This document shows positions 44,614 through 48,891 of a stretch of 64,000 bases of DNA, piece by piece. How positions within the stretch are numbered: the first letter of the stretch is position 1; every line of letters begins with the position of its first letter. The translations under genes were made by a program, and so were the position numbers. The DNA comes from Escherichia coli 042 (GTDB lineage Bacteria; Pseudomonadota; Gammaproteobacteria; Enterobacterales; Enterobacteriaceae), in the NCBI RefSeq assembly GCF_000027125.1, contig NC_017626.1. One strand, 5' to 3'. The notes under the pieces are model-generated. The model was not told the DNA's origin. It worked only from the letters and a program-made list of their open reading frames with translations, and ran no database searches.

Positions 44614-44964
44614 TCAATTGATGCGTTCGCGCGCTGTTTTTGCTTTATGACAGGGCCAGCACAGACTCTGCAGGTTACTGTCTGCATCTGTGCCACCATG
44701 AGCTTTCGGAATGATGTGGTCCACAGTTCTGGCTTCAACGGCTCTCCCATTGCGCAGGCAGTTCTGACACAGATGATTATCACGCTTCAGTATGCGCGCA
44801 CGTATGGCATCCCATTTCGAACCATAGCCACGCTGGTGGCGACTCAGTCCTCGTTGATGCTGTACCCATCCTTCGCCACGATGTTTATCGCAGTAACCAG
44901 AACTGTCTGTGGTTGTTCCTGCACATCCACGCTTACGGCAGGCACGTGGGATTAGTGATGGCAT
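44614..44964 (-). CDS. HNH endonuclease (packaging-associated, prophage)
   Basis: 116-aa ORF with Cys/His HNH motifs. Confidence 0.8.
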   Translation of the reverse strand: MPSLIPRACRKRGCAGTTTDSSGYCDKHRGEGWVQHQRGLSRHQRGYGSKWDAIRARILKRDNHLCQNCLRNGRAVEARTVDHIIPKAHGGTDADSNLQSLCWPCHKAKTARERIN

Positions 44965-45006: not shown

Positions 45007-45486
45007 CTACTTAATGCACTGAGTGCGGATATACTCCTGTGCCCCTTCCAGTTGCATCTGCATCGTCATCAGCCGCTCTCTGAGGGTGAAATAATCCCGT
45101 TCAGCGGTGTCTTCCAGTCGGGGGCTGGTTGCATTATCCACGCCGGAGGCGGTGGTGGCTTCACGCACTGACTGACAGACTGCTTTGATGTGCAACCGAC
45201 GACGACCAGCGGCAACATCAGCGCGCAGAGTTTCATTTTCAGCTTTCGCATTGGCTAATTCTCTCGAGTACTTTGCATCGAGCGCAGCAACATCACGCTG
45301 ACGCTGCTGCATGTCAGCGATGGTGGCGATCGCCAGCTTCAGCTCACTGACTTTTTTATCACGCTGTTCTTTGTAGGCGATGGCGTTATCACGGTAATGA
45401 TTGACCGCCCACGACAGGCAGACGATGATGCAGATAACCAGAGCATAAATAATCGCGGCGACTCTGCTCACTGATCTATCCCCCAA
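45007..45486 (-). CDS. Rz: i-spanin Rz
   Basis: 159-aa ORF, N-terminal TM segment and coiled coil, downstream of endolysin. Confidence 0.8.
45069..45251 (-). CDS. Rz1: o-spanin Rz1 (lipoprotein embedded in Rz, +1 frame)
   Basis: 60-aa ORF with lipobox VVGC and Pro-rich region, fully inside Rz. Confidence 0.7.
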
Positions 45487-46001
45487 CAGGCTAATGCGCT
45501 TTCCTGGTCACGACGAATAACCTGTCCATAGCAGTTATTTGAACGTATGCGGCAATCGCGCCCACCATCTATTATCCACCAGCGAATCGCCTCGCATGCG
45601 CCCTTACGATCACCGGCATTCAGCCGCTTATAAAACGTCGACGGAAAACACTTACCGGGGCCAATGTTATAGGGACAAAATGACGCGATACCCGCTTTTT
45701 GTGGTTCAGTCAGTGGTACTTTAATATTGCGCTCCACCCATGCCAGCGCCTTATCACGCTCAATGGCGTTGACCTGGTCGCATTTTTCCTTCGACAGTTT
45801 CATACCGGGAAAAACGGGTTTTCCATCCACCATCGTGGCACCCCGACAGATGGTCCAGATGCCGGACCCATCGCGGTATGCCGTTGTGTGGTTACCTTCT
45901 TTTTCATCCAGAAACTGGTCGAGAATATCAGGCGCGGGCGCACCGACGGCAATCAGTGCCAGAACGGCAGCCGACAGGCCGTATCTGATTTTTGCGTTCA
46001 T
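45468..46001 (-). CDS. R: SAR-endolysin (lysozyme R, T4-lysozyme-like)
   Basis: 177-aa ORF with N-terminal signal-anchor-release segment and lysozyme region. Confidence 0.85.
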
Positions 46002-46064
46002 GGATATTTATCAGGATTTATCGGTTTCTGCCCACGGACAGGTTTATCTGTTCCGGTCAGTGAC

Positions 46065-46415
46065 TTAAGGTTGTGATTCCGGAGGAGTCTTCAGAGAACC
46101 AGTAATTCTTCCTGGTAGCTTTCCTTTGTAGGTTATCCACACATTCTGCGCATCTAAAATTACGGGGCGCTTTTCCGGCGGCTGCTCATCCCTTTCACAT
46201 AACCCGGCAGCAACATCCAGGAAGACCTGTCTGATGCTCCTTCTGGCTGCTGCCTCATAAAACTCCAGCGCGGCACCTTCAACACGGTCCAGCGAGATGT
46301 CCAGGTCAAAAATTTCACCGTCAAAGCGTTTTTTGTCCCGTAACGCTAAAGTTACCGTAACTTTATTCTCAAAATTGCGGATCCCTTTCACAATCAGTTC
46401 ATAGTTTTGAGTCAT
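46065..46415 (-). CDS. hypothetical protein inside lysis cassette
   Basis: 116-aa ORF between holin and endolysin; no family recognised. Confidence 0.5.
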   Translation of the reverse strand: MTQNYELIVKGIRNFENKVTVTLALRDKKRFDGEIFDLDISLDRVEGAALEFYEAAARRSIRQVFLDVAAGLCERDEQPPEKRPVILDAQNVWITYKGKLPGRITGSLKTPPESQP

Positions 46416-46419
46416 TGAA

Positions 46420-46635
46420 TTACTCTCCCCGTGCCGCCTTACGACGGTCCTCTCTGATTTTGAAATACAGGTTAGTCAGATATGTCAGCAGCCCAAACAG
46501 CAGACTCCCCAGCACGCCTATTGCCGCCCACTGAGACGGGGAAACCCTGTCCAGCAACTGCAGGAACCAGTAGCCCGTTCCCACCGCTGACGTGGTGTAT
46601 GACACACCTGTTGTGATTTTTTCCATCTGGTCCAT
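46420..46635 (-). CDS. S: class II holin / pinholin (S21-like)
   Basis: Start set at [10 protein letters not shown]...; 71 aa; two TM segments and charged C-terminus ...[13 protein letters not shown]. Confidence 0.75.
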
Positions 46636-46942
46636 ACCCCGTCTCCCGTTATCCGGAAGCTGACAACAATAAAAAAGCCACCAGTTAACTACTGATGGCT
46701 CTGATAACTCATGCAAGCGTCTCAGACGATCCACTGACACTACCGGTGAGTTTAACGATACCTTCCATTTGACTGGCTCACTTTTTATGATGATGCCGGT
46801 GCATTTATCTCCAGCACCAGACTTTCTATCTCAACGCCATACGTTGCATTTTTGGTAATATCCGTCAGCGTCAGTGCATTTAGTCCCACTGCCAGACTGT
46901 CCTTTATGGCCTGGAATGCCGGGCCAGTACGATGACGTAGTA

Positions 46943-47131
46943 TCACTCCGGCTCAGTTGCACCACTGACCACCACATCACCTTCTGCTGCAATCGCCTGC
47001 ATCAGGGTATAAGGGGTTATGGCCACCGGACTACCAAACGGCTGCCAGCCCTCTTTCAGTTTATGTGTCAGCTTTTCCGCAAGATCTGACGGCGGCGCCG
47101 CCCTGACAACATCATAGTGTTTAAATGCCAT
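46943..47131 (-). CDS. hypothetical protein (DUF1737-like) upstream of lysis genes
   Basis: Small ORF at the conserved position upstream of S; assignment from memory. Confidence 0.4.
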   Translation of the reverse strand: MAFKHYDVVRAAPPSDLAEKLTHKLKEGWQPFGSPVAITPYTLMQAIAAEGDVVVSGATEPE

Positions 47132-47391
47132 GGTTCTTTCCACCATCTGAAAAATAACTCTTTAAAATACCTGACATGTAATACAGAAAAAACACAAAAC
47201 CATACCTTAAATAAAAACCTGATTATCAAGCAGATATGCATGGATAAACTACAAGACGAGATATAAACCACCCTGCATTTAAATAAACAATAAACAACAT
47301 CAGAAAAATAATTCTGCTCTATGGTTTACATTCAAAAATATCATTTATACTTTTCAGAACATCACCAGCAAGGCATAAACAAGGAAACTAA

Positions 47392-47727
47392 ATGAAGTGG
47401 ATTGTGATTGATACAGTTATCCAGCCATCATGCGGAATATCTTTTTCAGTCATATGGAGTAAAATAAAATTAATAATCTGGTATCAATCGGATGCTTTCT
47501 TACCTCCTGAAAGTATATTTACACTGACTCACACAGGCATCATGCTCAATAACAAAGTGCTACCTGTAACCATTTACAACGTAGTACCATTCAATAAAAC
47601 ATTCTGGAATTTAATCAAAAACAGCCAGGAATGCCCTACAAATACAGATAACGTATTGAATGAATGCTTTAATAACCGTTGCACTCTGCAAATATGTCCT
47701 TATGGACTAAAACAACAAAGTCCATAA
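47392..47727 (+). CDS. hypothetical AT-rich moron protein
   Basis: 111-aa ORF with AAGGA Shine-Dalgarno, opposite strand to the late operon, strongly AT-rich. Confidence 0.4.
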
Positions 47728-48174
47728 GGAGTTTACTCACATCTGACAAAATCAATATAAACAGCCCCTCCGGAGAGGGGCTGGAGAGTGGCGCTATGTG
47801 CCATTGCATGGTGCCGGGTGCCTCCCGGTGAATTCAGTACCAGCACCTGAATCCGCGATTATCCCATATACCTACTCGCTGATTGCCCCTCCGCACAGGG
47901 GGATTCACCATGCCAGTTTCTTTTAACAAACTCCCCGCAAACCAGACAACAGTCAACCGCCTGAATTGTGAAGTATTTAAAAATTTCTCCCGCTAACTGA
48001 TACCCGGCTAACAGTCTGGCGTTTTCTTTTTCAGCAACGGGAAAGCAACAACCACCACACCCGCCACCAGCACACCGTCAGCCAGCACTGACATTATCCG
48101 GCTGCTGCAATGCCATTCACAAAAACAGTAAGCAATCACTTTTTACCGTAACAGGTGATAATCCAGATATGTAT

Positions 48175-48636: not shown

Positions 48637-48713
48637 TATGGCGCGCTGTACTGGATTCGAACCAGTGACCGATTGCTTAGAAGGCAATTGCTCTGTCCGG
48701 CTGAGCTAACAAC
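48637..48713 (-). tRNA. tRNA-Arg (anticodon UCU)
   Basis: Manually folded cloverleaf: acceptor GCGTTGT/ACAGCGC, anticodon stem ATTGC/GCAAT, loop CTTCTAA, T-loop GGTTCGAATCC, encoded CCA. Confidence 0.8.
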
Positions 48714-48815
48714 GCTGAATACCGATAATGGACCGCCATCGGGGACCCGCCCCCGCACCAACAACCCTGTTATCGTGTCGTCTGCTCTTCCTGATAAGCT
48801 AATGGCGGTTTGTGA

Positions 48816-48891
48816 TGGTGGCCCTTGCTGGATTTGAACCAGCGACCTGGCGATTATGAGTCGCTCGCTCTCACCACTGAGCTAAAGGGCC
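48816..48891 (-). tRNA. tRNA with CAU anticodon (Ile2/Met type)
   Basis: Acceptor GGCCCTT/AAGGGCC, anticodon loop CTCATAA, T-loop GGTTCAAATCC, encoded CCA. Confidence 0.8.

Follow-up and report, generated by a model that had tools for sequence, protein, structure and literature searches.

The window analysed here is a 64,000-nucleotide (nt) stretch of the Escherichia coli 042 genome (contig NC_017626.1, assembly GCF_000027125.1). It contains a lysis cassette in which an additional open reading frame (ORF) is placed between the pinholin gene S and the gene R of the signal-arrest-release (SAR) endolysin. This ORF, a member of the ydfR family, is the subject of the present analysis. On the minus strand a split DUF1737 gene is followed by the S21-type class II holin, the ORF, the lysozyme, Rz with embedded Rz1, an HNH endonuclease and terminase genes. 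The lysozyme translation shows a Gly/Ala-rich, SAR-like N-terminal segment and the E35-D44-T50 spacing of SAR endolysins. The 2.2-kb lysis region is 100% identical in several E. coli chromosomes. Features and their positions are collected in Table 1.

Table 1. Features of the ydfR gene and of the surrounding lysis cassette in the window.
Feature	Position	Strand	Description and evidence
ydfR-family (DUF1327) gene	46065-46415	minus	ATG start, 116 amino acids (aa), 13.2 kDa, predicted soluble; PF07041, PHROGs, RefSeq name
Conserved core domain	46185-46415	minus	codons 1-77, acidic (pI 5.0), predicted strand-strand-strand-helix; alignments and AlphaFold2
Variable C-terminal tail	46065-46184	minus	codons 78-116 and stop, basic (pI 9.8), predicted disordered; predicted local distance difference test (pLDDT), alignments
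51-nt segment specific to the short-tail allele	46029-46079	minus	last 4 codons, stop and start of the spacer; blastn against L096
Shine-Dalgarno sequence GGGGAGAG serving ydfR	46423-46430	minus	within the 3' end of the holin gene; sequence, anti-Shine-Dalgarno duplex -8.5 kcal/mol
Conserved AT-rich leader GATAAATCCTGATAAATATCC, no Shine-Dalgarno sequence	46002-46022	minus	directly 5' of the endolysin ATG; sequence comparison
S21-type class II holin (pinholin)	46420-46635	minus	71 aa, M1/M4 dual start; PF04971 (E=9e-33), phrog_9876 and phrog_20 (holin)
SAR endolysin (R21-type lysozyme)	45468-46001	minus	177 aa, hydrophobic Gly/Ala-rich N-terminus; PF00959 (E=1e-23), phrog_7
Rz i-spanin	45007-45486	minus	PF03245 (E=7e-49); RefSeq 'lysis protein' with start at 45471
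Rz1 o-spanin embedded in Rz	45069-45251	minus	PF06085 (E=2e-19)

The 116-aa product matches the Pfam family DUF1327 (PF07041) with 143.6 bits and an E-value of 2.2e-42, above the gathering cut-off of 25 bits, and its residues 1-112 align to positions 1-92 of the 93 profile positions. Five PHROGs are matched as well (406, 2091, 1085 and 2735 among them), every one of unknown function, and the RefSeq entry that is 100% identical to the product (WP_000193274.1) is named 'YdfR family protein'. A scan of NCBIfam and a comparison with the PADLOC defence models gave no match to the protein, and no second DUF1327 copy was found in the 64-kb window. The ratio of non-synonymous to synonymous substitution rates (dN/dS) of the ORF is 0.25 against the Qin gene of K-12, 0.28 against the core of the H-19B gene and 0.41 against Evi; among 32 close ydfR alleles the corresponding polymorphism ratio (pN/pS) is about 0.3. 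Since these values accompany a clear Pfam match, the ORF is evidently a genuine gene under purifying selection and not a chance ORF. With a maximal Kyte-Doolittle mean over 19 residues of 0.69, whereas the holin reaches 1.70 and the SAR segment 1.87, the product is predicted to be soluble and devoid of a hydrophobic or transmembrane (TM) segment.

An earlier note on this DNA had described an extra soluble ORF on the same strand between pinholin and SAR endolysin, and the ORF list, the Pfam search and the hydropathy profile agree with this description. The same note had called the gene unknown. The profile search places it instead in the named DUF1327/YdfR family. The founding member of that family, ydfR, occupies the equivalent slot of prophage Qin in K-12. 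The gene thus belongs to an already named, common family.

Nor is the insertion unusual; it is a known and common accessory of lysis cassettes, an outcome that the earlier note had listed as one that would refute its reading. DNA resembling ydfR is present in 4348 of the 5426 complete E. coli genomes (~80%), at up to 10 places per genome, and at least 586 IMG/VR stretches encode a relative. Among 50,697 deposited phage records, DUF1327 occurs in 101 and an S21-type holin in 427. The family as a whole is narrow, with 112 cluster representatives matching its profile among 1.84 billion proteins. All 85 related loci that were examined have ydfR 4 nt after the stop codon of an S21-type holin, followed by a lysozyme. 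Holin alleles of 76-100% and Rz alleles of 55-100% identity are found together with one and the same ydfR allele. No relevant literature was found under b1555/Qin or under essQ/rrrQ, and the passages searched in a survey of lysis cassettes in Shiga toxin (Stx) phages (PMC8136144) do not mention the extra ORF.

The gene can be absent from otherwise very similar cassettes. In VT2-Sakai, which lacks ydfR, R starts 4 nt after S, and its S and R are 97% and 91% identical to those of the window; the insertion or deletion (indel) extends from 4 nt after the S stop codon to about codon 5 of R. Because phages with S and R genes that are 91-97% identical lack ydfR, the gene is, as judged from these comparisons, dispensable for the S/R/Rz lysis pathway. 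Its GC content is 47% (0.46 at third codon positions) versus 52-54% in the holin, lysozyme and Rz genes. We conclude from its genomic context that ydfR is best described as a moron-like accessory of the late operon and does not belong to the core lysis machinery. Of the roles that had been considered for the ORF, a moron riding the late transcript fits best, given the clean indel between S and R, the lower GC content, the missing promoter and terminator of its own and the tail-gene slots used elsewhere (see below). A role as lysis regulator is without direct support and survives only through the loss of the endolysin Shine-Dalgarno sequence that the insertion entails.

When phage records are sorted by name, DUF1327 is found in 41 Stx1a-converting records versus 47 with an S21 holin, in 15 Stx2c-converting records versus 17 with an S21 holin, and in only 2 Stx2a-converting records versus 124 with an S21 holin. 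This bias for certain Stx types probably reflects lineage linkage. In such phages ydfR shares the late transcript with stx.

The ATG of ydfR lies 4 nt after the holin stop codon (TAA at 46420-46422, spacer at 46416-46419), and its Shine-Dalgarno sequence is embedded in the 3' end of S. No promoter-like or terminator-like site was found between S, ydfR and R (46001-46635), and an Rfam scan of ydfR and its spacers yielded no RNA family. The 63-nt spacer between ydfR and R can form a weak hairpin that is no more stable than those of shuffled sequences (z=-0.11). Since neither a promoter nor a terminator separates the three genes, ydfR is predicted to be transcribed with the lysis genes as part of the late transcript. 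Its position suits translational coupling to the pinholin; that the two are coupled is our inference from this arrangement.

The insertion also changes the start region of the endolysin gene. A 21-nt leader directly upstream of R is near-identical in the window, H-19B, Evi and the locus L096, and in all four the duplex of the R start with the anti-Shine-Dalgarno sequence is predicted at +0.3 kcal/mol; the value for Qin is -2.8. In the absence of ydfR the corresponding values are -8.5 (VT2-Sakai) and -7.1 kcal/mol (SfI). The ribosome-binding site embedded in S, which serves R in VT2-Sakai, serves ydfR in the window. As read from these comparisons, the insertion deprives the endolysin of the strong ribosome-binding site embedded in S and leaves R behind an AU-rich leader without Shine-Dalgarno sequence. 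The association of ydfR with such an endolysin leader is a contextual finding made here. The leader is unpaired in the predicted fold, and unstructured AU-rich leaders can initiate translation through ribosomal protein S1. The dosage of endolysin relative to holin is probably changed by the insertion, and the re-wired endolysin translation would be a by-product of it.

The protein consists of two parts that differ in conservation. Its core is 79% identical and 95% similar to residues 1-77 of K-12 YdfR, and beyond residue 77 the two proteins are unrelated. The conserved part comprises about 72 residues, begins with YEL..VK and contains a Y53-E54 motif; both residues of this motif are invariant across 28 aligned sequences, some of which are only 23-38% identical to the window core. 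An AlphaFold2 model of the core, calculated from a diverse alignment, has a mean pLDDT of 86.7 and shows three antiparallel strands (residues 5-14, 18-27 and 34-43) and a long helix (residues 50-74). For residues 75-116 the pLDDT is below 50. Homologues have total lengths of 72, 103, 114-116, 176-183 and 287 aa, and their tails differ. The synonymous divergence (dS) from H-19B amounts to 1.50 in the core versus 0.24 in the tail. Consequently, core and tail have had separate histories, and the boundary between them is read as a mosaic joint. In a blastn comparison with the 176-aa allele of L096, the two sequences are homologous as far as codon 112; beyond it, 489 nt of the long allele are exchanged for 51 nt in the window, and the sequences are homologous again from 27 nt before R.

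Structure searches were not informative. With the full-length model, Foldseek returned nothing from the PDB at E<=0.001, the best matches being de novo beta-sheet designs and tyrosine phosphatases; with the core model it returned nothing from the BFVD at the same cut-off. The best E-value in a profile search of PDB sequences was 0.14. Of the profile and structure searches that the earlier note had proposed, the former thus led to DUF1327, and the latter gave nothing significant in PDB or BFVD. A Pfam scan of long or fused alleles (176, 196, 206 and 287 aa) revealed no informative second domain.

Two unusual architectures were seen among the predicted proteins. A 170-aa protein from Salmonella enterica (P0223) appears to carry two tandem DUF1327 cores; the first (~70 residues) was judged by eye, and the second matches Pfam with E=5e-5 and 24.0 bits, just under the 25-bit gathering cut-off. 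In several other predicted proteins (P0016, P0032, P0040, P0083, P0092, P0107 and P0113) the holin domain PF04971 is fused to DUF1327. The holin and ydfR genes are in different frames with 4 nt between them, so that such fusions most likely represent pseudogenes or artefacts of a frameshift or of the assembly.

Members of the family also occur outside lysis cassettes. Weak but full-length profile matches of 72-76 aa are annotated as DUF1327 in Yersinia, Serratia, Sodalis, Pantoea and Salmonella, where the taxonomy of these distant members was taken from cluster names. In reciprocal tblastn searches the standalone members are 30-35% identical to the E. coli clade over all 72 residues. Their genes lie in lambda-like tail clusters, either between M and L (L087, L092, L094 and L095), between the T-like chaperone and the tape measure (L088 and L089) or after I (L093), and in Cronobacter a 71-aa member is found behind an Rz-like gene, in a cassette whose endolysin is of the GH108 type. 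All of these distant genes are on the late-gene strand. Hence, the family is, according to gene context, not restricted to lysis cassettes and fills several late-operon slots, which is a further contextual finding made here. The spread over tail slots fits a moron-like passenger and weakens the case for a regulator specific to holin or endolysin.

In a number of loci and phages (L086, L087, L088, L092, L093, Evi, PhiR12_2_star, L096 and L100) a small convergent ORF follows the DUF1327 gene. One family of these partners, family A (phrog_25324), is represented by ORFs at 693-992 (minus) in L086, 696-1001 (minus) in L092, 2744-3040 (minus) in L005 and 2501-2797 (plus) in L100. Since its members are 61-75% identical between the tail-slot loci L086 and L092 and the S-R slot of Evi, DUF1327 and family A appear to have moved as a unit. 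Another family, phrog_10490, is found in L088 (4244-4519, minus) and L093 (1879-2160, minus); its function is unknown, as is that of phrog_25324. At least four unrelated partner families exist, and family A also lies opposite unrelated genes of 94-95 aa (L102 and L103). These arrangements may represent a mobile two-gene cassette. The partner as an obligate companion of DUF1327 was considered and excluded: it pairs with unrelated genes too, and it is absent from the window. PADLOC gave no match to the convergent partners; its sole match, a weak one of the DUF1327 protein of PhiR12_2_star to PDC-S11 (E=0.003), is not credible.

Among the closest known relatives, YdfR of K-12 Qin (P76160) shares with the window gene the slot (essQ-ydfR-rrrQ-rzpQ) and the start 4 nt after the holin stop codon. 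Its tail, however, has 26 residues and is unrelated to the 39-residue tail in the window, and its stop codon overlaps the rrrQ start, whereas the window has the 63-nt spacer. The alleles of 176-183 aa from E. coli and Shigella prophages (P0021, L096) are 96% identical to the window at the DNA level from the holin through ydfR codon 112 and have the same R leader. They carry a charged, helix-prone extension of ~64 residues that is overlapped by a convergent ORF of 86 aa and that the window protein lacks.

Morons in the sense of Hendrix are exemplified in lambdoid phages by lambda bor and lom and by HK97 gp15. Like ydfR, these genes are dispensable, lie between genes that are adjacent in sister phages and have a distinct base composition. 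The ydfR family fills several late-operon slots, among them the one between T and H, which is also the slot of HK97 gp15. Hendrix morons have their own promoter and terminator, in contrast to ydfR, which is expressed from the late transcript with a ribosome-binding site inside S and is thus probably silent in the lysogen. Antiholins and other lysis regulators (S21-71, lambda S107, T4 RI, P1 LydB) are encoded beside the holin gene in the lysis cassette, as is ydfR, but the ydfR product has neither a TM or periplasmic domain nor a match to a lysis family. Moreover, the window holin already has a dual-start motif of its own.

Several observations concern the genes around ydfR and the late region upstream. 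The holin starts with MDQM (46624-46635, minus), as compared with MYQM in Sakai and Evi and MKSM in SfI and Qin; the latter is also the N-terminus of phage 21 S. According to the antiholin model of S21, the longer holin form owes its delay to a Lys at position 2. The window holin has Asp instead of Lys at this position and retains the M1/M4 dual-start motif. The DUF1737 gene 5' of the holin (46785-47146, minus) looks split into ORFs of 67 and 53 aa, the first of which is an incomplete pseudogene according to RefSeq. Downstream, the HNH endonuclease gene (44614-44964, minus) directly precedes the gene of a P27-family small terminase subunit, as is usual for HNH and terminase genes in HK97-like packaging modules.

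Further upstream, a match to the small RNA STnc100 (Rfam, 132 bits, E=7e-30) at 47753-47942 (minus) ends in a strong GC hairpin (47783-47762) with a T-run. It is probably the short leader RNA of the late operon that runs from pR' to tR'; the late promoter would then lie ~1.3 kb upstream of the holin. A terminator-like hairpin at 46674-46702 (minus), 12 pairs followed by TTTATTGTTG, lies within the late transcript ~40 nt upstream of the holin start and would need read-through by Q-modified polymerase. Between the late leader and the lysis genes, an ORF of 111 aa at 47392-47727 (plus) is annotated in RefSeq as anti-adapter protein IraM; a PmrD-family match is recorded for its equivalent in L096, and a Pfam scan of the window ORF gave nothing at E<0.01. 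It represents a classic moron on the opposite strand within the late region. Two tRNA genes are located upstream of that region, one for tRNA-Arg(tct) (48639-48715, minus) and one with a CAT anticodon (48816-48891, minus); the latter is assigned to Met by ARAGORN versus Ile in RefSeq for the equivalent gene. A third tRNA gene (Arg) is contained in the RefSeq annotation of an identical genome and was not reported by ARAGORN in the window.

What the protein does may be approached through RNase E. Small proteins that alter RNA decay by modulating this enzyme are T7 gp0.7, T4 Srd and phiKZ Dip as well as the host proteins RraA/RraB and RapZ. No sequence or fold homology of the window protein to RapZ, RraA/B, Dip or Srd was found. 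RapZ binds the catalytic half of RNase E (Rne), as does the K-12 YdfR paralogue (PMC13232886). In the same study a bacterial two-hybrid screen yielded residues 1-72 of K-12 YdfR three times, a signal with Rne1-597 was seen for full-length YdfR, and Rne1-598 co-eluted with Strep-YdfR from lysates (PMC13232886). DNase-resistant nucleic acid co-purified with K-12 YdfR, and its overproduction was not toxic (PMC13232886).

On this basis we tentatively favour, as a possibility that falls short of being probable, that the window protein is a late-expressed cytoplasmic accessory which, through contact of its core with RNase E and/or RNA, modulates RNA decay late in infection. The protein would be made late from the S-embedded ribosome-binding site, coupled to translation of the pinholin. 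Its core would bind the N-terminal catalytic half of RNase E in the manner of the Qin paralogue; as the two proteins are 79% identical over the binding region, such binding is the most likely property of the window protein. Once bound, it might modulate decay or processing of transcripts, for example of the long late mRNA or of host mRNAs. The acidic core and the basic tail would suit contact with an RNA-binding enzyme and/or RNA.

Several points weigh against this reading. Full-length K-12 YdfR gave no two-hybrid signal with full-length Rne, Rne1-498 or Rne1-415, and its overproduction altered few transcripts (PMC13232886). The co-purification was from crude lysate without nuclease treatment, so that the contact may be bridged by RNA (PMC13232886). 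Furthermore, the RNase E data concern the K-12 paralogue and not the window protein, and the strict tie to the holin-endolysin junction in E. coli fits a lysis-related role equally well.

Such a role could be that of a dedicated regulator of lysis timing. By binding to the pinholin at its cytoplasmic C-terminal tail, or to the SAR endolysin tethered to the membrane, the protein would delay or sharpen triggering like a soluble antiholin. The constant position after S and before a SAR lysozyme in all 85 loci speaks for it, a placement suited to coupling to S would favour matched output of holin and YdfR, and the Keio ydfR mutant is among the matches of an envelope-integrity screen with chlorophenol red-beta-D-galactopyranoside (PMC3879167, supplement). 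The last result might stem from polarity of the kan cassette on rrrQ, the endolysin gene downstream. The distant members in tail clusters or beside another type of endolysin, with no S21 holin nearby, do not suit such a regulator, and neither does the combination of one ydfR allele with holins that are only 76-80% identical, which gives no sign of co-evolution. About three quarters of the phages with an S21-type holin lack ydfR, and the protein lacks a TM segment and matches neither PHROGs nor Pfam families of the lysis category. We therefore consider this role unlikely. It is improbable that the protein matters little and that the inserted DNA acts in cis, by uncoupling R from the S-embedded ribosome-binding site and thereby lowering or retiming R translation. 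The differing duplex energies at the R start (+0.3 with ydfR, or -2.8 in Qin, versus -8.5 and -7.1 kcal/mol without) and the extent of the indel, which reaches into the first codons of R, speak for such an effect, but a pure spacer would not have a core under purifying selection that is conserved across genera down to 25-35% identity. In addition, the unpaired AU-rich leader of R could still initiate through S1.

The convergent ORFs suggest another origin, namely that the window gene is the orphaned half of a two-gene moron in which DUF1327 on the late strand is combined with a convergent gene expressed in the lysogen, for example as a late antagonist of a prophage exclusion or defence protein. 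These pairs, the joint movement of DUF1327 with family A and the fact that the 489 nt of the 176-aa allele replaced in the window hold such an ORF are consistent with this origin. It is nevertheless distinctly unlikely, because the window copy and most E. coli copies are without partner, family A pairs with unrelated genes, the partners belong to at least four unrelated families, and no credible PADLOC match was obtained. Finally, the protein could bind structured RNA or ribosomes late in infection and independently of RNase E, being similar to a double-stranded-RNA-binding domain or to Rv1738 and hibernation factors, with RNase E co-purified through bridging RNA; we regard this as very unlikely.

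Returning to the favoured contact with RNase E and/or RNA, a wider proposal, which is doubtful at present, is that the YdfR family corresponds in temperate phages to T7 gp0.7, T4 Srd and phiKZ Dip. Its members would be expressed late, in translational coupling with the holin, and would attach to the catalytic half of RNase E and/or to RNA, reprogramming RNA decay in the last minutes of infection and thereby setting the stability of the long late transcript. If this is true, the family would be among the most widespread phage-encoded modulators of RNA decay known, considering its presence in ~80% of complete E. coli genomes, and in Stx1a and Stx2c phages this late transcript also carries the toxin genes. 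Should the RNase E lead from the K-12 paralogue prove right, the family would connect the induction of prophages with the decay of host RNA. Should it instead be the missing ribosome-binding site of the endolysin that counts, pinholin/SAR systems would have in this family a natural dial for the amount of endolysin.
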